NCBI RefSeq assembly: GCF_000829235.1
Contig: NZ_AP012549.1
Coordinates: 2,400,001-2,432,000, forward strand
DNA from: a cyanobacterium endosymbiont of Epithemia turgida isolate EtSB Lake Yunoko
GTDB taxonomy: Bacteria; Cyanobacteriota; Cyanobacteriia; Cyanobacteriales; Microcystaceae
Length of the DNA stretch: 32,000 nucleotides
Direction: 5' to 3'
The translations under genes and the position numbers were made by a program. Under the pieces are notes generated by a model that saw only the letters and a program-made list of their open reading frames with translations, searched no databases and was not told the origin of the DNA. Below are positions 10,741 through 29,946 of this stretch, piece by piece; position 1 is the stretch's first letter; the number at the start of each line of letters is the position of its first letter.

Positions 10741-11421
10741 ATGATAGAAATTAGTATTATTATTCCGGTGTTAAATGAAGAAACTTTCATTTTAAAAACT
10801 TTAAATAATCTACGTACAAATGAAGCTATCGAGGTGATTGTTGTTGATGGTGGAAGTCAAGATAATACCGTTCAATTATTGCAAAATATGGGAGTAAAAA
10901 TAATAAAGCTTACTCAAGCTAGTCGATCATTACAAATGAATCAAGGGGCATTATTGGCAACTGGAAATATTCTTTTATTTCTTCATGCAGATACTATATT
11001 GCCAGAAGGATATGATGAGCTAATACTTAATAGTTTTTCAAACTCAAAAATAGTTGGGGGAGCTTTTAAATTAAAGATCGATCTTTCTCTATTTTCACTC
11101 CGTTTAATTGAAATTTTAGTTAACTGGAGATCACAAATTTTTTCTATTCCTTATGGTGATCAAGGAATTTTCGTTAAGACCTCAGTATTTCGAGAAATAG
11201 GAGGGTTTACAAATTTTCCCATCATGGAAGATTTCGAGTTTATGCAAAAACTCAACAAACGAGGTAAAATCGTCATCGTATCAGCTAAAGTGGTGACCTC
11301 TGGCCGTCGTTGGCAAAAATTAGGAGTAGTTAAAACAACGCTCATTAATCAACTGATTATTCTAGGATACTATCTAGGAGTTTCTCCCAAAAAATTAGTA
11401 CAATGGTATCGAGAAAAATAA
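10741..11421 (+). CDS. Family-2 glycosyltransferase (small cyanobacterial GT-A type)
   Basis: 226-aa ORF. ISIIIPVLNEE...VIVVDGGSQDNT...LLFLHADTILP...GDQGIFV..FREIGGF...MEDFEF is a GT-A fold with DxD-like motifs. Confidence 0.85.
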   Translation: MIEISIIIPVLNEETFILKTLNNLRTNEAIEVIVVDGGSQDNTVQLLQNMGVKIIKLTQASRSLQMNQGALLATGNILLFLHADTILPEGYDELILNSFSNSKIVGGAFKLKIDLSLFSLRLIEILVNWRSQIFSIPYGDQGIFVKTSVFREIGGFTNFPIMEDFEFMQKLNKRGKIVIVSAKVVTSGRRWQKLGVVKTTLINQLIILGYYLGVSPKKLVQWYREK

Positions 11422-12604
11422 CAAATATATTATATATAAATAATATCTATAATAAAAAATTAATATTTTTTGAAATTAGTAGAAAATAGAAATTATTAAA
11501 GTACATAATGTTGCTATTGTTTGTTATGACTAAGACAGAGATCAAAGATTTTGCTATTAAAATCCTTAAATTTTTAAAAATTAATAAAACTAGCTTAGAA
11601 TACAAGAATATTACAAGCTAGTTTTAAGAGTAATAGATTCAATATATGAGTAAACTTTTTTTGTCCTACTTATGAGATTTAGTCAACAAGAATATTTGGG
11701 ACTAAAATAGATTGCCTTTAATGTGTAAAGTATATAAAAAATTATTGCTATTGCTAATTTAGACTTAAAAGTAGCTCAGATTATAACTCTTTATAATCTC
11801 TGAATTAACAAATTAAAAACGCAGTTTTTAATAAAATAGACCAGTTGTATTTTAAATTTGATAAAGAAGTTGACATTTGATTACATACTTTAAATATTAC
11901 AGTAATTAATAATTAAGGAAGAAACAATAAAACTTTTAATTAATGGGTTTTAGTATAATCAATGGTATATAGTATGACGCCAAAAGTAAAGGAGGACATT
12001 TTATTAAAAAATCTTCTTAGTTTTATAATTGGATGACATTAGATAAAAATGCAGAAATATATAGAAAAGATAGTTTAAAAGTAGGACCGTGATATTTCTT
12101 TTATATGTTTATATACTTGTCTATGAGCCCATCCTATCTTTATTTTTCAGACTATTAAAGGACTAAGAGATGTGATTTTTATCTCTTTTGTTTATTAGTT
12201 TATAGAAAAAGTTGACTATATATTTTGAGAATCATAAGGAAAAAATCTTGATTCTATTAGATTAATGGTGTTTTTTATTCATATAAAGTATACACCCAGG
12301 CTAATTATAGCTATACATAAAGGGTGATAGTTACTGTTCTTTAAGAACAGATAAATAACAAAATTATTAGTAATAAATTCTCAATAATAATTTTAGATAT
12401 TGAATAGTGTATTTCATAAACTTGAAGTAAAATATATAAATTTTTATCTAGTAAAATTAAGAGAACAACTCGACATTATTAATTAATGACAGAATTTATA
12501 ATCATATTAATAATAGACTTTATAAAATGAGATTGGCAAAAACTCAATAAGCTCAAGAATAAAATATTATTCCCCTATTTCAAGCCTTAGATTGGTTAGA
12601 AGAA

Positions 12605-12636
12605 AAGTAATCTAACTCCTAAGTAATCTAACTCCT
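12605..12636. repeat. Perfect 16-bp tandem duplication
   Basis: AAGTAATCTAACTCCT occurs twice head-to-tail (12605-12620 and 12621-12636) inside a spacer. Confidence 0.9.
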
Positions 12637-13019
12637 GCAACATAATTATACTATCAATTAAATGAAGTAGGCCAGCAATTATTCATTGGCGCTTTTATTT
12701 ATTTTGAATCTGATATGTGTCATTTATTTTGACTATAAAAATACCGTATATTTAAGGATTATAGTTGATGAAGATATGTACGATAGCTACATCAATTTTC
12801 TTTTCTTATATCACTAAAACTCTTGATTTTAAGCACATTAAAAGGTTTTTCATAAAAGTTATAAACCAATCAATATTAAGGAAATTGTACCCATGGTATC
12901 TAAGATTGATTTGACTCAATTCCATAGAAGAAATTATAGACTTATTTTTCTAAAAATATCAATATTATAAACAATTTATCAAATAATCAAGTGAGGAAAA
13001 CTAAAAACAACTGCCTCTA

Positions 13020-13340
13020 TCACCCAATACAATAACAATCCTTAACTTCGTTAGTGTCTACAACCCGTTGAGAATAACTCCACTGTCATACCAAGCAACG
13101 ACTTTAACCATGTCGTTCTCCATTACCATGGTTAAGCTAGAATCAACCATAGAAGAATGATCAGTTACATGATAGTCACAGAAAACTACAAGGGTAAGTC
13201 ATTCTATAAAATAATGCCCTTCATAGAACCCTGAGAAGCTTCTCGCAATACATCATTCACTCCTTCGACAAGGGTACTTTTTTTCTGTATGACTAAGTCC
13301 ACCAATTTATTTTTTTTTTACCGGACAAATTTAGTCATGA
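13020..13340 (-). pseudogene. gap2: Glyceraldehyde-3-phosphate dehydrogenase relic (C-terminal third; weaker traces up to ~13520)
   Basis: Minus-strand fragments: [72 protein letters not shown], then after a frameshift [19 protein letters not shown]. Compare GAPDH VDLVVQVEK.TFAEEVN.VLR.AAEG.LKGILGYT.LPLVS.D..G...SSIVDASLTMVMGGDMVKV.AWYDNEWGYSQRVVDLAE. There is an in-frame TAG and at least one frameshift. The N-terminal half has no room before murC. Confidence 0.85.
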
Positions 13341-13551
13341 ATAGGAAACTTCCAAGATAATAATGACAAAATGTAGAATAAATCTAACTTTAACTCCTTT
13401 TTAGCTATCCTGATTCAGGTAAAAAACAGTACCAAACATCATAATTAATAAAAACACAATTGATGACCAAGTGGTCAGTTTTTGATATCATAGCCCGTAA
13501 TTAATAAGCAACGACGTTTTGTGGTAATCGTGTGGTGTGTTAGGAGATGTA

Positions 13552-15042
13552 ATGGTAAAAACGGTTGATTTTAGTGGACGGCCTTTCCATTTCATCGGAA
13601 TCGGCGGGATAGGGATGTCGGCTTTAGCTTATGTTCTAGCTAAGCGTCAGATTCCCGTATCCGGTTCCGATTTACGATCGAGTCATATTACAAAAAGATT
13701 GCAAGAAGTTGGAGCGTATATTTTTAGTCGTCAAGAGGCGACTAACCTAGAACTCTTTCATTCTAGCAACGGACAAATCACTGAATCTGTCCTACCTTTG
13801 GTCAATAATTTGACAACATCTTTGGTTGATAAAAATGGACATGATCATGAATTGAGTCCGAAAAGGATTTTAACTGAACAGTTACCTCAAGTTATATTTT
13901 CAACAGCGATTGCTCAAGGTAATTCAGAATATCGGGCCGCCCAGGAAAAGGGATGTCCGATTTTCCACCGTTCTGATGTTTTAGCCGCTTTAATTACAGA
14001 TTATCAAAGTATTGCGGTAGCTGGAACTCATGGGAAAACCACTACTAGCAGTCTTTTAGGTTACGTACTGCTCAAGGCAGGACTCGATCCAACTATTATC
14101 GTCGGAGGAGAAGTAGATGCTTGGAAGGGTAACGCTTACTTTGGTTCTAGCAAATACTTAGTAGCTGAAGCAGATGAGTCTGATGGCTCTCTAGTGAAAT
14201 ATTTTCCCAGTATCGGAATTGTCACTAATATTGAACTTGATCACCCGGATCACTATAAAAGTCTAGAAGATGTAGTAAAAACCTTTCAGATTTTTGAAAC
14301 TCAATGTGAAATATTAGTAGGGTGTGTTGACTGTGAGACAGTGAGAACTCAGCTAAACCCGACTATTACCTATAGCCTTGATCTTAATCAAAACGCAGAT
14401 TACATTGTCAAGGAAATTACTTATAGTCTTGAGAACACAACGTTTGAAGTTTGGGAAAGAGGGCAGTTTTTGGGGCAAATGTGCCTAACCATTCCAGGAA
14501 AACATAATGTTAGTAATGCTATGGCTACTATAGCTGTAGGGCTGCAATTGGGATTGGAGTTTAAGATAATTGCTGAGGCATTAGCTACCTTTGGCGGAAC
14601 AAAACGGCGTTTTGAATACCGGGGTCAAACCCATGGTATTACGTTTATTGATGATTACGCTCATCATCCTAGCGAAATCAGAGCTACCCTCTCGGCAGCT
14701 CGTTCTAAGGTTGAGCAAAACTCTCGTGTAGTTGCTGTTTTTCAACCTCATCGTTATAGTCGTACCGCTGCATTTTTAGAAGAATTTACTACTTCTTTTC
14801 AAGATGCGGATTTCATTGTTCTAACCGATATTTACAGTGCAGGGGAAGCTAATGTTGCTAACATCACAAGTCAAGACTTAGCTAATGAGATTAAACGTCA
14901 TCATGGTGATGTGATTTATCAACCCTCTTTAGAAGCTTTAATTGAATCTCTTCCTAAACTTTTGCGACCTGGAGACTTAGTTCTGTTTTTAGGGGCGGGG
15001 AATCTTAATCAAATTATTCCCCAGGTAATTGCTGGGTTTTGA
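13552..15042 (+). CDS. murC: UDP-N-acetylmuramate--L-alanine ligase
   Basis: HFIGIGGIGMSALA Rossmann N-terminus, GTHGKTTTSS P-loop, and Mur ligase middle and C-terminal domains (DDYAHHPSE, FQPHRYSR). I place the start at ATG 13552, which has an AGGAG 5 nt upstream, rather than at the GTG at 13537. Confidence 0.95.
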   Translation: MVKTVDFSGRPFHFIGIGGIGMSALAYVLAKRQIPVSGSDLRSSHITKRLQEVGAYIFSRQEATNLELFHSSNGQITESVLPLVNNLTTSLVDKNGHDHELSPKRILTEQLPQVIFSTAIAQGNSEYRAAQEKGCPIFHRSDVLAALITDYQSIAVAGTHGKTTTSSLLGYVLLKAGLDPTIIVGGEVDAWKGNAYFGSSKYLVAEADESDGSLVKYFPSIGIVTNIELDHPDHYKSLEDVVKTFQIFETQCEILVGCVDCETVRTQLNPTITYSLDLNQNADYIVKEITYSLENTTFEVWERGQFLGQMCLTIPGKHNVSNAMATIAVGLQLGLEFKIIAEALATFGGTKRRFEYRGQTHGITFIDDYAHHPSEIRATLSAARSKVEQNSRVVAVFQPHRYSRTAAFLEEFTTSFQDADFIVLTDIYSAGEANVANITSQDLANEIKRHHGDVIYQPSLEALIESLPKLLRPGDLVLFLGAGNLNQIIPQVIAGF

Positions 15043-15183
15043 AGCATCTTATCACTCTTAGGGGTTCAAGTTTTTTTTGATATTTAGTCTTAACTCTATT
15101 TCTCAGACCCTTGTGTCTGGAAACAATTTGAATAATTTTTAGTTCACCGTCTTCAATTGACTTCCCATTAAACTAATAAACTA

Positions 15184-16110
15184 ATGATTAAAGCGTTGTC
15201 TTCTCCAATACGATTGCCCGTGGCCAATTGTCATATTTTCCCTAATTTTTCTCTAGCTAATCAAACTTCCTATCGCGTAGGAGGTGAAGCTCGATGGTAT
15301 GTTGCTCCCCGTACTTGGGAGGCTCTACAAGCCACCTTTGAATGGTTTCAAAAGCAAGATATTCCTCTGATACTGTTGGGGGCAGGTTCTAATCTTTTGA
15401 TTAGCGATCGCGGAATCGATGGCTTAGTGCTAAGCACCCGCTATCTACGTTATCGTAAATTTGACCCTGAAACAGGGTGTGTTACTGTAGCGGCTGGTGA
15501 CCCTGTAGCTAAAATTGCTTGGCAAGCTGCTAAACATGGTTGGCGCGGCTTGGAATGGGCTGTAGGCATCCCAGGGACTGTGGGAGGAGCAGTGGTAATG
15601 AATGCGGGAGCTCATCGTCAATGTGCTGCTGATTGTTTGATCAGTGCAGTGGTGGTGTCTCCTGATGGCACAGTAGAAACTCTTACATCTAAAGACCTTG
15701 ATTATAGTTACCGCACCTCTTCGTTACAAGGAGCTGAGAAACTTGTTTTAGAAGCCACTTTTCAATTAAAGATGGGGTTCAGTCGTCAAGAAGTCATGAC
15801 AACTACTCAACACAATCTTCAACAACGTAAAAATTCCCAACCTTATGATAAACCCAGTTGTGGGAGTGTGTTTCGTAATCCTACTTCTCATGCTGCGGGA
15901 TGGTTAATTGAACAATTAGGCTTAAAAGGATATCGTATTGGTAACGCAGAAATTTCCCATCGTCATGCTAATTTTATCCTTAACTGTGGTCAAGCTAAAG
16001 CGCAAGATATTTTTCGCCTGATTTATCATGCTCAAGAACAAGTAGAAGCTCGTTGGTCTTTATTACTGGAACCAGAAGTCAAAATATTAGGTGAATTTTC
16101 TGCCTCCTAA
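15184..16110 (+). CDS. murB: UDP-N-acetylenolpyruvoylglucosamine reductase
   Basis: 308-aa ORF with the FAD-binding domain (YRVGGEARWYV, LLGAGSNLLISD, GIPGTVGGAVVMNAGA) and the MurB C-terminal domain (CGSVFRNP, HANFILN). Confidence 0.95.
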   Translation: MIKALSSPIRLPVANCHIFPNFSLANQTSYRVGGEARWYVAPRTWEALQATFEWFQKQDIPLILLGAGSNLLISDRGIDGLVLSTRYLRYRKFDPETGCVTVAAGDPVAKIAWQAAKHGWRGLEWAVGIPGTVGGAVVMNAGAHRQCAADCLISAVVVSPDGTVETLTSKDLDYSYRTSSLQGAEKLVLEATFQLKMGFSRQEVMTTTQHNLQQRKNSQPYDKPSCGSVFRNPTSHAAGWLIEQLGLKGYRIGNAEISHRHANFILNCGQAKAQDIFRLIYHAQEQVEARWSLLLEPEVKILGEFSAS

Positions 16111-16206
16111 GGCTGTAGGAAACACCACAGGAATACTAAGATTGACTAATGGAGTTCCCTATTAGGCTCTAGCTCATTATCATTAAAATCAATACTCTTA
16201 AAAGAT

Positions 16207-16551
16207 ATGACAAAAGGACAAGGATTTGGATTTGGATTAGGCAAAATTAGAGAATTACAAGAAGCTTTCCAAAAAGCACAACAAGTTCAAGTTGGAGCGC
16301 AGGAACTTCAAAAACAATTGGAGGAAATGGAAATCGAGGGAGCTTGTGGGGGAGAATTGGTTAAAGTTATCATGAGTGGCAACCAAGAGCCTCTTTGCGT
16401 TGAAATTACCCCAGACGCGATGGAAAAAGGAGCCGATAGTCTTTCCCAATTAGTTACTGAGGCAATGAAAGATGCTTATGCTAAGTCTGCCGAAATGATG
16501 CGAACTAAGATGGAAGAACTTACCAGTGGTTTGAATCTTCCAGGAATGTAG
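16207..16551 (+). CDS. ybaB: YbaB/EbfC family nucleoid-associated protein
   Basis: 114-aa [56 protein letters not shown] and the size are characteristic of the YbaB family. Confidence 0.9.
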
Positions 16552-16565
16552 TTCTTAATGGCTTA

Positions 16566-16620
16566 CAATCGAATAAATCCGTCCGAGTAATTGAAGTGCT
16601 CGGACGGATTTATTCGATTG
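16566..16620. repeat. Perfect 22-bp inverted repeat with 11-nt loop (hairpin; possible ybaB terminator)
   Basis: CAATCGAATAAATCCGTCCGAG [TAATTGAAGTG] CTCGGACGGATTTATTCGATTG, verified base by base. It starts 14 nt after the ybaB stop. No U-tract follows (GTTGGAAG). Confidence 0.9.
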
Positions 16621-17538
16621 GTTGGAAGTCACTGAGAAGCACACAATATACCATCTTGCTTTTCTTTGCAGAGACTGTTCATTTAGTAGTTTGTTCAATT
16701 TTTTTGCTCCAAACTCCTTCACATTAACCAAATCAGAAACTCAGACAGCAAGAAACAGCCTTTTCAGTGTACTTAGTTGCAATTATTAAGCTAATCACTC
16801 GTACTAATGGAGCCTAACAGATGGAAATAAAACGGACTAAATGGGGGTTAACTCTGTTTAAAATAGTTACTCTTCGAGACAATTTTTTCGAGACAATTTT
16901 ATCAATGCTATTGTCAATACCTTTGTCTGAGAGACTTTTTGGCTGTTTGTGTTTAAGGGGAAAGCTTTCTGTACTTATAAAAGTCCATGAAGTATTGCTA
17001 TTGATGGTGTTTTTAACACTAAAAGGTTATTTAAATTTTTGAAAAAATTTTATTATCTTTATTTTTAATATTCTACTATAAATTGTCAATAATTTTGATT
17101 TAGTTCAGGTAGTAAAATATTTTTTGTATTAATAAACAGAAAATAATTAGTTTTAATTAAAGCCTAAAATTTTAAAAAATTATTATTAAAAATAATATTA
17201 TTGATAATATTGTAAACCGATAATTTTATATGAGAATAATTTTTATTATAAATAGAATTAATAGGTTTGTATTGGAAAAATTTACAGATATAACACCGAA
17301 GTTTATGAATTAGTATCCTAATAAAAACAGCCTATTTTAAAAAATTATCATTATAAAGTTGGCGTAGTAGATAAAATGTACCATAATTAAATTATACAAT
17401 TTAATTATGGTACAAAACTATATAGTAGGACAATAAAAGATTATATTATTACTACAAGGCGAGCAATACATCGACCTACAAGGTTTTATAACCCTATCAA
17501 TATTTCAATCATATACATTTTTTCCATTAGATTTTTTT

Positions 17539-17847
17539 TTAAAAAAGATCTAATGGAAAAAATGTTTTTAACATTTTTCTTATCTTCAATAAAAAGATCA
17601 TGTGTTTAAATTGAGAATTAAGTTCGGAAGGGTAAGGACTCTCAGCTAATCTCGCTTTAATTTCGGCATATTCTCCAGATGTTAAAGGTTTTCCATCAAT
17701 AGGTGATCGCCCTTCAGTTACAATTTCTGTCCGCAAAATTTCTTCAGGTATATCTTCAGGAGGAGGCAAGGCTACTCCTGAATTTAACTCTAATACTAAC
17801 CTAACTATATTAATAAAAATTGACCATTTTAATAAACGATGATTCAT
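17539..17847 (-). CDS. Conserved hypothetical small protein (signal-peptide-like N-terminus)
   Basis: 102-aa ORF lying 14 nt downstream of the GST gene on the same strand. The PPPEDIPEEILRTEIVTEGRSPIDGKPLTSGEYAEIKARL core looks like a conserved cyanobacterial family that I cannot name. Confidence 0.6.
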   Translation of the reverse strand: MNHRLLKWSIFINIVRLVLELNSGVALPPPEDIPEEILRTEIVTEGRSPIDGKPLTSGEYAEIKARLAESPYPSELNSQFKHMIFLLKIRKMLKTFFPLDLF

Positions 17848-17861
17848 AGAAACTTTTTTAG

Positions 17862-18530
17862 TTAATTTAACCCTGCTGGTAGCTTTTCTCCACAGATTTG
17901 ATGGATTGCAATTATTTTTTCAAACAACCAAGGATAATCCTGACGATACTCAGGAATTAAGCCTAAAGGGCTCAATAAAGCTGAGGCTGTTAAATCAGCA
18001 ACACTTAAACTTTCACCAACCAAATAGGGCTGATATTGCCAGTAAGATAACACATTCATGGCATTTTTCAACCGTTCTGAGGCTAATTCTACGGTAGCAG
18101 AAGTAATATTATATTGGTGACGGACAATATTAATCACTATTTGACTAAATAATGAAGAATCAATATATTTTCCTTTTTCTGCACGAAAATGATAGTAAAT
18201 AAAACGCGTGGCGGTTCCGATGCTCTCATCTAACCAGTCTTCTAGCAACCAAGCTTGAGTTTGTTTGCTGGCGTCAGGTAACATTAATGGAGGATTATTT
18301 TGATAGGTTTCGAGGTATTGAAAAATTCGAGTTGAGTCAGCAATTACTTGCGGTTCTTCTACTCTTTGAGGTAATAAGACTGGAACTTTTGTCAACCCTG
18401 TAAGAGGTCTTAATTTAAGTAGATGTAAGCCTGGCGTTAGGTTCTCGACTTGATAAGAAATTTTTTTATACCCTAATGCTAATCTAGCTTTACGGCAATA
18501 ATGAGAGGTACTAAATTGTAACAATAACAT
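17862..18530 (-). CDS. Glutathione S-transferase family protein
   Basis: 222-aa ORF. The N-terminal thioredoxin-like GST domain is (LLQFSTSHYCRKARLALGYKKISYQVENL..KVPVLL), followed by a helical C-terminal domain (LVGESLSVADLTASALLSPL). Confidence 0.85.
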   Translation of the reverse strand: MLLLQFSTSHYCRKARLALGYKKISYQVENLTPGLHLLKLRPLTGLTKVPVLLPQRVEEPQVIADSTRIFQYLETYQNNPPLMLPDASKQTQAWLLEDWLDESIGTATRFIYYHFRAEKGKYIDSSLFSQIVINIVRHQYNITSATVELASERLKNAMNVLSYWQYQPYLVGESLSVADLTASALLSPLGLIPEYRQDYPWLFEKIIAIHQICGEKLPAGLN

Positions 18531-19154
18531 AAGTTAATCAGTAATCAATGTTAAACATAATAATCAACTACAGACGAAGACTTAATTAGACTAGGAACAA
18601 TTATCCCAAAAGTAACTAAATATCTTCAAAAAAGCAATCTTTATTTTTTAGCTTAACTTTTTATAGTCAAAAAACACCTTATTTGCAGGACTCTACTATA
18701 ACGCGTTTTTAAAAACTGTTATTTCTAGCACACTTTGCTGATTTTTAAAATATCATTATGACTGGGGAGACACAAAAAAAATGTTCTTTTTTTAAAGAAA
18801 ATTATTTTTATTTAAATATTAAAATTATGGCCATAAGCATAGGATTTATATCCTAAAAATTTTTGAAAAGAAATAGTTATTTTTATAGTTTTAATTGATA
18901 CTAATAAAATTATTGGTAATGTATCAATTCTTTTCTTTATCGATGTGAGTATTCCAATTTTTATTATCCTTGTTTGGAGGGATAAAGAAAAGAAGCAGAT
19001 AAAACCTATAATTTACTGTTGAGCTAATTTTATCTTAATTAAGATCTTAATATACCATTAAAATATATTTTTTTAGGGAGAAAAGTCTGGTGTTCTAGTG
19101 TAGAAAAATACGATTGATTATGCTAGGATAAGTCCTAGTTTTAGGAAAGTACCA

Positions 19155-19337
19155 ATGAACCAAGATACTATTCGGGAAAAAGTGAAAGCCATCGAAGGTG
19201 AGAGAGAATTTTTAGTCCAACTTCTCAATAAACCAGATTTAGGAATTTTGAGTATCGATGTCAAGCAGGCTATTGAAGAACTTGATGAGTTAATTGATGA
19301 ATTTGAATTTACTTTTCCGGAAAAAAATATGAATTAA
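19155..19337 (+). CDS. Small acidic hypothetical protein (60 aa)
   Basis: The ORF has gene-like rather than spacer-like composition, a coiled-coil-like sequence (IREKVKAIEGEREFLVQLL...AIEELDELIDEF) and AGGAAAG upstream of the ATG. A palindromic terminator-like element follows it. Confidence 0.5.
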   Translation: MNQDTIREKVKAIEGEREFLVQLLNKPDLGILSIDVKQAIEELDELIDEFEFTFPEKNMN

Positions 19338-19390
19338 ATCACTGGTATGGTAAACGAAAGTCAGAAAGGGCTTAAGTCCATGATATTTCA

Positions 19391-19417
19391 GAAAAGCTAT
19401 TTTAAAAATAGCTTTTC
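19391..19417. terminator. Perfect 27-bp palindrome, terminator-like, downstream of the 60-aa ORF
   Basis: GAAAAGCTATTTT A AAAATAGCTTTTC (13-bp arms), 54 nt after the stop at 19337. The U-run is embedded in the descending arm. Confidence 0.45.
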
Positions 19418-19539
19418 CTACTTACCTATGTAAATTTTAAATAAGGTTTTTTAAAAAAGCTCTCACAATTAATCAAAAGTCAATAAGTTATTTGTTTTAA
19501 CTTTTCTGAACTGAATGTGATTAGCTAGAAAATTAATAA

Positions 19540-19594
19540 TTTATAATTGAGTTATCTGAGCTATACTTCATGGCTCAGATAACTCAATTATAAA
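19540..19594. repeat. Perfect 22-bp inverted repeat with 11-nt loop (hairpin)
   Basis: TTTATAATTGAGTTATCTGAGC [TATACTTCATG] GCTCAGATAACTCAATTATAAA, verified base by base. The geometry (22/11/22, 55 nt) is the same as the hairpin at 16566-16620, but the sequence is unrelated. Confidence 0.9.
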
Positions 19595-20096
19595 AAAATC
19601 TTTACAAAATTATATTTCTTACAGAAGATAACTCTCAATATTTATTGAAATAACGTGACAACTAGTCTAGAAATATCATTTGTTTTGATACTCAAAACAA
19701 CTCAAACTTTGATTATTATAATTTTTTTAGTAAAAACTATCTTTGATGGTAATTAAAACTTTGATAAGTAGATGCTCTTAAATAAGTGTAAGATGGAAAA
19801 GTAATTAAATTAAAAGTGCTTACTAGATATCAACCTAACTAAAAATTAAGCTAACATAATTAAAAAATAAAGAATCATAAAAGTTGATTTATAACTAAAC
19901 AATTCCCTTCATAGGGAGAACAATAAAATAAAATTTATGTTGAAATACAAGAGGATAGAAAGATAGAAAAATTTAAGACTAAGTGAAGCTATTAAAAAAT
20001 ATAATTAAGACAATAATTTATCTAGTCACAAAACTTTATTATAAAAATAATACCTAATATAAGGATGTAAAATTATAGTCGATTTTAATTAGGTAG

Positions 20097-20148
20097 CTGA
20101 TGAAGACATAATAAGAGTAGATAAACTAACTAATTATGTCTTCATCAG
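20097..20148. repeat. Perfect 16-bp inverted repeat with 20-nt loop
   Basis: CTGATGAAGACATAAT ... ATTATGTCTTCATCAG, in the middle of an extremely AT-rich 1.8-kb spacer. Confidence 0.9.
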
Positions 20149-21150
20149 TTGCTAAATCAATCGTTTTATTGATAGGCTTCTTTAATTTACGAATATTTTT
20201 AGATATTAATTTAAAAATATATTTAAAGAATGGTTATTTTTAAAAAAATCAACTAAAAATATTGATTAATAAACTTCTTATGTTGAAAAAATTTACAATG
20301 TTAATATTTAAAATATAGCATTCAAAAATGAAACAAGTAAATAAAAACTAGAAATAATATTTAAAGGTAAAAATAAAGAATTATAAGGAAAAAACCTTCA
20401 GGTATTAATATAGTTAGTAACTGATAAATTTACTTTATTTTAAAATCGAAGTTAAATAACTTTAAAATACTGGTTAAAACCACAAAAATATAAGGTTTAT
20501 ATTAAAAGTCAATATGTTATTTTAAAACAATAAATATAACTTAAGTAAAAGATAAAAAAATCTAATTTATTAGATAATTAAATACTATATATTAAGACTA
20601 TTAAACTTAGTAAGTTGGTGTTAAAAACCTATATAATATTAGGCATTAGAAATAAATTTATTTTTTTACAAAAAAACAACTTAGGGACTATTAGAAAAAA
20701 TCAATTATAAATTAAAGTTGCCAAAAAAGATGATCAAAAGCAAAGCGTTTAGATTTAGAAGTTCTGTTAATTCTTACCTCCAAAATTTATCAAACTTACA
20801 TTTTATTAGTTAATTCTATATTGTTAGTTTTCCATAGCCAAAATTATATTATTTATTAATATAAAGACTAGTCATGAGAATGATATTAAATAAACTATAA
20901 TAAAAATTATTGTGCTTAGTAAAAAATAAATTAGTAAATTTTAAATAAAATAATTATGAGCAATTTACTACTTTAATTTTCATTAAATAGGTTATGTTTA
21001 AACTTACTAGAATTAGTTTGTTGACAAGTATAAACTTAGATATCTTTTGTTAAATAAATTAAGATAAAAAATTTGAAAATTATTTATTTTATAATATTAT
21101 TTTTTATTTTAATTACACTTTTTAAAAAATTAATAATAAACCTGAATTAG

Positions 21151-21891
21151 CTACAATTTTAAATCATTAGATAATTGAATTGCATCTCGCAATTCTTTTG
21201 AGGATAAAGGTTTAAAAATAAAATCTATATTAAAACATTCTTTGGCAGTTTCAGTTAAAATATTAATAATATTTTCTGGATAACAATTATCAGGTAATTG
21301 TTCAAGAAGTCCTAAACTCCAAGGTGCAGATTGATTAAAAATAGTTTTAAATAGTGTTTTATTAGTTGATAAAACCATAGATCCATGTTGCAATATAGAT
21401 TTTTTTCCCCTTCGTTGTGCGCTTCCAATAAGTTTACTTCCATCAGAAGTAATTAAATCAGAAATAGTAGCCGTATTAAAACAACTAGAGTTATGAATAT
21501 AACCTCGTCTAGCTATTCCGTAATCTAATTTAATTCCTAAAGACGACCAACCTTTAATCAAAAACTGACAAATTTGTTTATAAATTTCTAAAGTTCTTCG
21601 ATTATTAATTGGAGTAATTATACCATAAGTTAAGTCTCCTTGATGAAGAACTGCTCGTCCTCCTGTGGAACGACGTACTAATTCTATAGGACGTTTTTCC
21701 CAAGTTAAATTACACCAGAATAAAGGCCATTGTTTTTGTAAACGACCCAGAGAAATTGTCGGTGATGACCAAGTATAAAAGCGTAAAGTAGGAGGATGTT
21801 GTCCCTTTTCGTGCTGGATAAATAACCAATTATCAATAGCCATTTGGATCGTACCTGATGCTTCAATAGGAGGAATTAAACGCCATTTCAT
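21151..21891 (-). CDS. Lipoate-protein ligase / octanoyltransferase family protein (BPL/LPL catalytic domain)
   Basis: 246-aa ORF. PTLRFYTWSSPTISLGRLQK...RRSTGGRAVLHQGDLTYGII...KLIGSAQRRGKKSILQHGSM carries the LplA/LipB-type catalytic core motifs. Confidence 0.8.
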   Translation of the reverse strand: MKWRLIPPIEASGTIQMAIDNWLFIQHEKGQHPPTLRFYTWSSPTISLGRLQKQWPLFWCNLTWEKRPIELVRRSTGGRAVLHQGDLTYGIITPINNRRTLEIYKQICQFLIKGWSSLGIKLDYGIARRGYIHNSSCFNTATISDLITSDGSKLIGSAQRRGKKSILQHGSMVLSTNKTLFKTIFNQSAPWSLGLLEQLPDNCYPENIINILTETAKECFNIDFIFKPLSSKELRDAIQLSNDLKL

Positions 21892-22828
21892 AATTAATTT
21901 AGTTACTCCATAACAATAATAAAAGACTATTCATGTTTCAGTAAAATAAAGAATATTTTAATTGCGTTGTTCATAAAGTAATTTCACTTTTAATTTAAAT
22001 TTAAATTTACCTATTTGTTGAGGTAAACAAGCAGAATTAAGAATATAAATTTACCAATTACTTATGATTTATGCCCTATTTCGTAACAAAAGAGTAGCTA
22101 ATTCAAAAGGTCGCTAAAAACCGTTATTTCTAGCAACGTTGACGAATGACCCTTTGACGAAAAAATGGAAGTATGGCATAAATCACTTCCTGGTCATCAA
22201 TTAATTGAGGTTTATTGAGATCATTTTTATAACCCTAAAGGAATTCAGAGATAGTTGACCGACTCCCAAGCCGAGTACACATCAACATCAAATTTAGCAA
22301 AGTATTTTGACTAATTGAAAGCTCATTTACTTTTTATAATAGTCCTTCATCAGGTTTAAATTCATCATAAATTTCTACTTGTTGATCAAAAAATAACTAA
22401 TCTTTATTAAATAATGTATAATCACAGAAACTAATTCTATAATTATAACCACTAATCTAGATTAAATGAATTATGATTTTTAAATTATTTAATTATATTA
22501 ACTTTTGTTGTATCTACCAAGCATATTTTAGATTGTCAAAATTTCCTGGTTGTGAATAAACTAAAATAGGGAATTGTTTAGCTAGTTTAAAATTGCTTAG
22601 AACAGAAATAATGTCTCTATCATTAATACGTAGACATTGGATTTTATAAAAAATATCATAAATATTAATTTAAAGTCAATTTTTGACTTTAAATTTTTTA
22701 GAGTTTTTATAAAATAAATAATACCAAATAAGTAGATAATAATTCTTGAACCTATCATTTTAACTGTATTGCAACAATGTTAAATCATTATTCCTATAAA
22801 GATGAAATTATTGGAATTATAAAAAGCC

Positions 22829-22864
22829 TATAAAACCCAAAATTTTAAAATTTTGGGTTTTATA
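22829..22864. repeat. Perfect 36-bp palindrome (bidirectional terminator-like)
   Basis: TATAAAACCCAAAATTTT|AAAATTTTGGGTTTTATA, with all 18 pairs checked. The CCC/GGG core with flanking A/T runs gives a hairpin followed by a U-run on both strands. It lies ~190 bp upstream of recN. Confidence 0.9.
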
Positions 22865-23053
22865 AAAATAATTATAGCTAGTTTAAAATAACTCTTATTG
22901 TTAACTTAAAGTGATTGTCGAGATACTGAAAATATCAGCATCTTAAGACTAAACTGGGAACCGTATCATAAAATTTAATCTTTTGTGTCTGAAATATTCA
23001 CCTTAGGTTAAGATAAACAGAAGTCTCTGGTATTGATAAGTCAGGGTTATTCA

Positions 23054-29900: not shown

Positions 29901-29946
29901 TGGAGTAAACTTACAGAGAGAAAACTAGCACTGTAAGTTTACTCCA
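29901..29946. repeat. Perfect 16-bp inverted repeat with 14-nt loop
   Basis: TGGAGTAAACTTACAG [AGAGAAAACTAGCA] CTGTAAGTTTACTCCA. A weaker GGGTT/AACCC hairpin follows immediately. Confidence 0.9.

Follow-up and report, generated by a model that had tools for sequence, protein, structure and literature searches.

The stretch of DNA considered here (the window, 32,000 nucleotides in all) carries cyanobacterial genes, among them glnA, clpS, murC, murB, ybaB, recN and cimA, together with a glutathione S-transferase (GST) at 17862-18530 that is identical to BAP18385.1. About half of the window is A-T-rich DNA free of open reading frames (ORFs). This fits the published picture of spheroid-body genomes, in which coding density is low and synteny high, decayed genes are many and intact transposases are absent (bioRxiv 10.64898/2026.03.19.712447). 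The window comes from the spheroid body (diazoplast), a nitrogen-fixing endosymbiont, of an Epithemia diatom, probably E. turgida, and its non-coding part is slowly decaying. Two perfect 55-nt hairpins lie in this DNA, at 16566-16620 and at 19540-19594. Their origin is the subject here.

The hairpin at 19540 reads, as left arm, spacer and right arm, TTTATAATTGAGTTATCTGAGC / TATACTTCATG / GCTCAGATAACTCAATTATAAA; the one at 16566 reads CAATCGAATAAATCCGTCCGAG / TAATTGAAGTG / CTCGGACGGATTTATTCGATTG. Each has a 22-bp Watson-Crick stem without a mismatch, enclosing an 11-nt spacer. The first-pass annotation had called them two perfect 22+11+22 hairpins of unrelated sequence, and the sequence itself, shuffling and arm searches all bear this out. 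The arms of the two hairpins are mutually unrelated and find no other match in the window at up to three mismatches. Both fold with z-scores of -10.6 to -11.8, and 0 of 200 shuffles were equally stable. The longest perfect stem in 20 local shuffles of the window was 12 bp, whereas the real window holds seven stems of at least 16 bp. Over 15 kb containing both hairpins, the window agrees at 100% identity with a Logan assembly made from a different sequencing run (SRR29904087); the hairpins are therefore not assembly artefacts.

The shared geometry is, of course, a matter of how one counts. Minimum-energy DNA folds of the + strand give 25 pairs and a 5-nt loop at 19540, but 23 pairs and a 9-nt loop at 16566; a separate measure of the arms gives 25 nt and 27 nt, respectively. 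The 22/11 geometry is equal in both hairpins only under strict perfect Watson-Crick counting.

Catalogues of known structures offered no home for either hairpin. A search of Rfam 15 gave no match at gathering thresholds, and a relaxed search gave only generic eukaryotic microRNA-precursor hairpins, at 20-26 bits against cut-offs of 51-150 bits. A transfer-RNA scan gave no match. A terminator scan of 15000-23000, whose pattern was a G+C-rich stem with a loop of 3-8 nt and a T-run directly 3', listed neither hairpin. On the + strand, the sequence directly 3' of the stem is AAAAAAATC at 19540 and GTTGGAAG at 16566, without a T-run in either.

Both hairpins have genes for neighbors. Upstream of 16566 lies a ybaB/ebfC-like gene (16207-16551, + strand), an ORF with the Pfam domain YbaB_DNA_bd. 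The hairpin at 19540 had been said to adjoin no intact gene, which was wrong: an intact, conserved 60-aa ORF (19155-19337, + strand) ends 202 nt upstream of it. The hairpin lies between this ORF and an lplA-like gene on the minus strand, that is, between convergent genes. The 60-aa protein is 93-95% identical in three related endosymbionts (L002, L003 and L004, below), while the flanking DNA is only about 75-79% identical. It is 80% identical in Rippkaea orientalis PCC 8801 and 60-70% identical in Nostoc and Symploca, and belongs to no Pfam family. This ORF is kept intact in genomes that are otherwise decaying. In free-living Rippkaea, a rhomboid-protease gene stands 3' of it. The idea that 19540 lies inside a decayed copy of that gene was rejected, as no remnant was detectable in any spheroid body compared. 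On the minus strand, 19609-19638 matches a promoter-like pattern at 11 of 12 positions (TTGAGA, 18 nt, TATAAT), from which transcription would start just before 19540. Such matches are common in A-T-rich DNA (71 found against 45 expected), and this one is therefore weak evidence.

The history of the two hairpins was read from orthologous sites in eight related endosymbiont lineages, with 35 loci from free-living cyanobacteria as controls. Closest is the sister genome CP076462 (L041), 96.9% identical to the window in nucleotides over 20.7 kb; a Logan assembly of the same lineage (L042) is 96.6% identical. A metagenome contig that spans 16566 only (L048) is about 94% identical. Over the two genes adjoining the hairpins, the endosymbionts of Rhopalodia gibba (L002), R. 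gibberula (L003) and E. clementina (L004) are about 93%, 91% and 89% identical, respectively. Two more endosymbiont genomes are known here by their GST, which is 88% identical in amino acids in L047 (from ENA) and 81% in L044, which we take to be the E. pelagica endosymbiont. Polarity comes from five outgroup lineages, which at both sites are in agreement among themselves and differ from the window (L044 contributing an orthologue at 16566 only). Cases of spacer inversion were compared by hand, and some arm identities and pair counts were counted by eye from the alignment.

At 19540, the spacer (19562-19572) is in its ancestral orientation. Four outgroups (L002, L003, L004 and L047) have a spacer of the same length and orientation, T[GA]TACT[GT][CT]AT[GA]. 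The right arm (19573-19594) is also outgroup-like, with identities, by eye, of 18/22 in L002, 14/22 in L003 and 17/22 in L004; it would have been mainly the donor. The left arm (19540-19561), the acceptor, has been rewritten to match the right arm as its exact reverse complement. Where the outgroups have ...AA[AT]CTATTATT..., the window has ...AATTGAGTTA-T..., and the difference is clustered. Relative to L002 and L003 alike, the window has six differences here, of which five are substitutions and one is a 1-nt deletion, with TTGAG at the center against ATCTA or AACTA. The cluster lies within the 23-nt ancestral left arm, and all six changes create pairing. Adding two derived changes in the right arm, eight of eight derived changes create pairing and none breaks it. 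The two right-arm changes imply that there was more than one event.

These changes had something to work on. An imperfect inverted repeat was already there, as the arms of L002 are complementary at about 15 of 22 positions (by eye). It was weak: the folding energies of three outgroup orthologues are -4.3, -10.8 and -1.3 kcal/mol, while the window reaches -33.4 kcal/mol. On this comparison, the stem at 19540 reads as one built de novo from a weak quasi-palindrome with an 11-nt spacer, and presumably it has no function of its own. L004 is without the left arm, by an apparent deletion between TCTGAAC repeats, and L044 has no detectable orthologue. A metagenome scan for further lineages with the conserved flank AAAGTCAATARGTTATTT returned 120 unrelated A-T-rich matches and none from spheroid bodies, the pattern being too unspecific.

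The rewritten left arm is common to the window, L041 and L042 only, so that the main rewriting is older than the split between them. The sister lineage did not leave the hairpin alone thereafter. L041 and L042 have CATGAAGTATA as their spacer, which is exactly that of the window in reverse complement. Over the inner 19 nt, the window and L041 differ at eight positions when compared directly and at one when compared with the reverse complement. L041 has also lost 9 nt of the right arm, between CTCA repeats, and gained TTAT, the complement of ATAA in the left flank, making the repeat 4 nt longer into the flank. The outcome is another perfect hairpin, with a 16-bp stem and a 22-nt loop.

The hairpin at 16566 is far from new. 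Each of the eight spheroid-body lineages has a hairpin that begins 14 nt 3' of the ybaB stop codon, and in a free-living relative ybaB is followed by a classic hairpin with a T-run. In five outgroups, the lower stem is CAGTTTAT / [AG][AG]ATTG, with G.T and T.G wobbles and a bulged T. Above this stand a perfect middle stem and an apical region of 20-30 nt with a conserved helix, GCAATYG...KATTGC, and a loop given as 20-25 nt. From this ancestral apical stem-loop, 19 nt have been deleted in the window, in L041 and in L048, and its remnant is the 11-nt spacer (16588-16598). In the left arm (16566-16587), the lower 7 nt, CAATCGA in the window, have been converted. The form CAATC.A, fully Watson-Crick paired, is found in the window, L041 and L048 only, and the conversion took three substitutions and a 1-nt deletion within 8 nt.

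Here too the interior has been turned around. The spacer of L048 is CACTTCAATTA, the exact reverse complement of TAATTGAAGTG. The window and L048 differ at eight positions directly but at three against the reverse complement; for L041 and L048, the corresponding numbers are ten and three. At stem position 6, the mismatched pair reads (C,A) in L041 and (T,G) in L048, the pattern that inversion of the hairpin interior predicts. The hairpin is perfect in the window only, with 19 of 22 pairs formed in L041 and 20 of 22 in L048. A window-specific C at 16615, in the right arm (16599-16620), is mirrored by a G at 16571 in the left. Among the spheroid-body lineages, six pairs of this hairpin show double changes.

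Two further observations belong to this site. The 30 nt directly 3' of the hairpin (16621-16650, GTTGGAAGTCACTGAGAAGCACACAATATA) are near-invariant in most spheroid-body lineages, have no Rfam match, and give way to DNA that decays. In L003, the site orthologous to 16566 holds a long perfect hairpin at 14336-14400 (20-bp stem, 25-nt loop), whose pairing became perfect over another span once CAATT had been duplicated in the left arm.

What happened at these two sites, and in what direction, can be read from the aligned sequences. We consider it very probable that 19540, and the perfect form of 16566, are products of mutation templated by inverted repeats, as in replication template switching or quasi-palindrome correction. 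Here, the nascent strand would leave its template during DNA synthesis. An imperfect inverted repeat close by would offer it a complementary arm to pair with, in the nascent strand itself or on the other side of the fork. The strand would copy part of that arm, and then return to its own template. A switch inside the arms would make one arm the exact reverse complement of the other, while a switch across the spacer would invert the spacer. As for the events themselves, the left arm at 19540 was rewritten before the window and L041 split; later, in L041, the spacer was inverted, 9 nt were lost and the repeat grew by 4 nt into the flank. At 16566, an old hairpin had its wobbles and bulge changed to Watson-Crick pairs, its apical loop deleted and, on one branch, its interior inverted.

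Template switching is known to homogenize arms and invert spacers (PMC8604942), and to create and repair stems (PMC8794818); in bacteria, imperfect repeats are preferentially corrected (PMC5941160). The footprints expected of it are found here: arms that are exact complements (22/22 at both sites), clusters of change confined to one arm on one branch, a prior imperfect repeat, and inverted spacers. The replacement of wobbles and a bulge at 16566 by Watson-Crick pairs is expected of a DNA-templated process and is not needed by selection acting on RNA. Thus, the first-pass annotation was right to propose a common mutational mechanism, in that arm homogenization and spacer inversion occur at both sites; the preferred size that it attached to this mechanism did not hold up. 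The process is a known one in a new instance. Its setting is one in which it had gone unmentioned, the words "hairpin", "inverted repeat" and "palindrom" being absent from the text of the spheroid-body genome papers searched.

The two sites are not alone in changing quickly. In ten perfect repeats, the window and L041 differ at 14.3% of alignment columns; the figure is 4.7% for the remaining non-coding DNA and 0.9% for coding sequence, so that the perfect repeats evolve about three times faster than the non-coding DNA around them; a Fisher test on these differences treats clustered differences as independent, and its p-value therefore overstates significance. Long perfect inverted repeats are also dense. 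Spheroid-body loci hold 19 stems of at least 16 bp in 68 kb of non-coding DNA (0.277 per kb), about five times the density in free-living relatives (5 in 91 kb, or 0.055 per kb); the spheroid-body side of this comparison is a single syntenic region, about 115 kb in all, from lineages that are not independent. They turn over as well: where one lineage has a long perfect repeat, the orthologous sites of the others almost always have an imperfect one or none. The long perfect hairpins at L004 12727-12776 (23-bp stem, 4-nt loop) and L002 8965-9012 (22-bp stem, 4-nt loop) are, like that at L003 14336-14400, each lineage-specific.

Do the spheroid-body genomes have a truly raised rate of template switching, beyond neutral accumulation and perhaps tied to an unusual replication (dnaA is reported lacking in all)? 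This seems to us rather unlikely. If it were so, long perfect hairpins would be continuously born, flipped and destroyed in these genomes, which would offer a natural system for the de novo birth of stem-loops. Some of these, such as that after ybaB, might be kept as 3'-end structures, as in plastids. Loss of a repair nuclease as the cause of the enrichment is not relied on here, as replication and repair genes are reported to be largely intact in these genomes.

Besides the limits just attached to the rate and density comparisons, several points tell against template switching as the explanation. Recombination between the arms, or repair of a cruciform or hairpin, would leave identical footprints; polymerase strand switching is thus the route that we infer, not one that the footprints distinguish. 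The mutational event is itself read from its products and not from direct observation. At 16566, it is ambiguous in which direction the spacer was inverted, and the hairpin is probably also under selection as a 3'-end structure of ybaB. The hairpin at 19540, lying between convergent genes, could have been retained by selection after it arose. Last, the equal geometry of the two hairpins must be put down to coincidence, whose probability, at about 5%, is low but not negligible.

That coincidence is where the first-pass annotation began. Seeing one geometry in two unrelated sequences, it had suggested an element defined by its structure, with 22/11 as the preferred geometry, for example a hairpin recognized by a protein. 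The perfect pairing is indeed equal in the two. Both loops begin TA and end TG, and both stems have GAG at the top, as had been pointed out, although these features are not conserved in relatives, where inverted spacers reverse the loop ends. The proposal would be more compelling if the geometry were kept or repeated. In the sister L041, it is lost at both sites, the perfect stem and loop there being 16/22 at 19540 and 15/13 at 16566. An excess at 22/11 had been suggested as a test, and a partial census (115 kb of spheroid-body DNA, 19 long perfect hairpins) shows none: 0 of the other 17 have this geometry, their stems being 16-23 bp long and their loops 3-25 nt, with 4 nt the commonest loop. 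The routes to the 11-nt spacer differ, as it is ancestral at 19540 and came from the 19-nt loop deletion at 16566; so do the minimum-energy folds given above. Resampling gives P of 0.06 that the two longest of seven hairpins coincide in geometry, 0.05 for any shared geometry with a stem of at least 20 bp, and 0.59 for any coincidence at all. I read the match as chance. A family of 22/11 hairpins that a protein would recognize by shape and not by sequence is very unlikely, and nothing was found in favor of recognition by a protein. The other candidate of that annotation, a family of foldback miniature inverted-repeat transposable elements (MITEs), or else repeats like the repetitive extragenic palindromic (REP) elements, would account for short perfect inverted repeats in non-coding DNA. 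Mobile elements leave empty sites in relatives, and the orthologous sites here hold imperfect homologous sequence, in place. No other copy was found in the window, at up to three mismatches, or in 52 compared loci, and intact transposases are reported absent from spheroid-body genomes (bioRxiv 10.64898/2026.03.19.712447). Target-site duplications, which were also to be looked for, are not visible at the stem ends of either hairpin, the flanks being AATAA/AAAAA at 19540 and GCTTA/GTTGG at 16566. Mobility is scarcely credible on this record. Nor is it credible that the hairpins are artefacts of sequencing or assembly. Amplification chimeras, such as foldback chimeras, can of course give perfect palindromes, but the assembly from another run is identical across both hairpins, and the derived arms recur in L041, L042 and L048, which are separate samples.

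A more serious alternative is that these are selected RNA structures, stabilizers of 3' ends or terminators, kept by compensatory substitution and long because A-T-rich pairing must be extended to be stable. Much at 16566 would agree with this: its place directly after the ybaB stop codon, its presence in all eight lineages, its six double-changed pairs, and the hairpin with T-run at the same place in a free-living relative. The position of 19540 between convergent genes would agree as well. As an account of 19540, though, it meets the fact that the five outgroup lineages have no stable counterpart (in L044, no detectable orthologue at all), and that the hairpin is rearranged in a sister that is 97% identical. 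The repeats change about three times faster, not slower, than adjacent non-coding DNA. Neither hairpin resembles a terminator, as the loops exceed 8 nt and there is no T-run. Selection on RNA has no need to change wobbles to Watson-Crick pairs, or to bring pairing to a perfect 22 of 22, and clusters of change on one branch, with insertions and deletions among them, point to single events. Such selection is improbable as the main explanation of 19540. As a layer added to template switching, at 16566 only, it is plausible.

Other inverted repeats of the region show similar histories. Between the 60-aa gene and 19540 is a small perfect hairpin (19391-19417; 12-bp stem, 3-nt loop) with two differences in L041. 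The repeat at 17515-17565 (18-bp stem, 15-nt loop) has been perfected through its left arm, which is derived and common to L041; it has a 4-nt insertion and substitutions absent from L002-L004. The right arm overlaps the 3' end of an ORF (17539-17847, minus strand) and is coding-constrained. At 17377-17414 (17-bp stem, 4-nt loop), the repeat is lineage-specific: outgroups have the left arm only, and the right arm is a clustered derived change. The segment that holds it, 17346-17418, is an unalignable replacement in the 97%-identical L041, with 46 differing alignment columns, and is a local hot spot. An older repeat at 20097-20148 (16-bp stem, 20-nt loop), compared in L002, L003 and L041, has been kept perfect through paired changes. 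It pairs at 14/16 positions in L002 and 13/16 in L003 (by eye), and L041 shows a double change of A-T to C-G at one pair despite 97% overall identity. The repeat at 22667-22695 (13-bp stem, 3-nt loop) is perfect only in the window, separated from L041 by six clustered differences; its left arm is ancestral-like in L041 and L004. That at 22829-22864 (16-bp stem, 4-nt loop) is imperfect in L041, with five differences in 36 nt. A last one, at 29901-29946 (16-bp stem, 14-nt loop), is described from the window sequence alone.

The acceptor arm was the 5' arm on the + strand at 16566, 17515, 19540 and 22667, and the 3' arm at 17377. This may reflect a bias between replication strands, but four cases against one are too few. 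A cluster of changes at 21999-22007 was considered as a further new palindrome. It is an (AATTTA)3 tandem repeat, which slippage explains equally well, and so it was not counted.

The wider region records larger losses. About 6.1 kb found in other spheroid-body genomes has been deleted here, with its junction at 18883-18896. In L002, L004, L044 and L047, this place holds a Fur gene, which is intact, a gene for an OpuC-type ABC transporter and the remnant of a DUF2854 pseudogene, all of them missing from the window and from its sister L041. Between murC and a glycosyltransferase gene, L045 and L047 have a GAPDH gene (338 aa), which is truncated in L044. The window is ORF-free over the corresponding 11421-13537, and the gene thus appears to have been lost or to have decayed in this lineage.

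What does this mean for those who read such genomes? Equal hairpin geometry, by itself, is weak evidence for a structure-defined element; it was the comparison of orthologues that settled the question. These young, organelle-like genomes are reported to be without mobile elements and structurally stable, and yet they undergo frequent rewriting, driven by inverted repeats, at the scale of 50 nt. This rewriting makes stems of -33 kcal/mol from almost nothing, and its clusters of differences inflate apparent divergence. Changes of this kind can mislead alignment, phylogeny and tests of selection, as the minute inversions of chloroplasts do. The pattern also provides clean natural examples, of known polarity, of the birth of a hairpin and of compensatory change from a single event.

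Among known systems, intrinsic (Rho-independent) terminators and 3' stabilizers resemble 16566 in its place directly after a stop codon and in the conservation of a hairpin at that position. They differ from both hairpins in having a U-tract, smaller loops than the 11 nt found here, and far shorter stems, and from 19540 in that its closest stop codon is 202 nt away and the hairpin there is not an ancestral one. With REP elements and foldback MITEs, the hairpins have in common that they are short intergenic palindromes; unlike these, each is single-copy, unique in sequence and arisen in situ, with no known transposase or RAYT context.

There is a likeness also to the small hairpin-associated inversions of chloroplast DNA, 4-50 bp in size (PMC12371153, citing Kelchner and Wendel 1996). 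It covers the A-T-rich non-coding DNA, the compartment derived from a cyanobacterium, loops that flip between close lineages while the stems stay, and, for 16566, a place at the 3' end of a gene. In the spheroid bodies, genomes at 94-97% identity differ by inversion of the 11-nt spacers together with some of the stem. The genome here, of course, is not a plastome but that of a recently acquired endosymbiont, about 2.8 Mb in size.

The known counterpart of these hairpins is found in template-switch systems, from Ripley's model to the cases in bacteria, yeast and ribosomal RNA genes (PMC5941160, PMC8604942, PMC8794818, PMC7202029). The stems here, at 16-23 bp, are longer than the yeast examples, whose arms are 10-16 bp and spacers 3-5 nt (PMC8604942). 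Unlike cases within genes, the events here fall in the decaying non-coding DNA of an obligate endosymbiont, where they are unusually dense; and unlike work with reporter assays, the mechanism is drawn from phylogenetic footprints. The footprints themselves are those of template switching: clustered change in one arm, insertions and deletions included, paired double changes, inversion of the spacer, and extension of the repeat into its flank.

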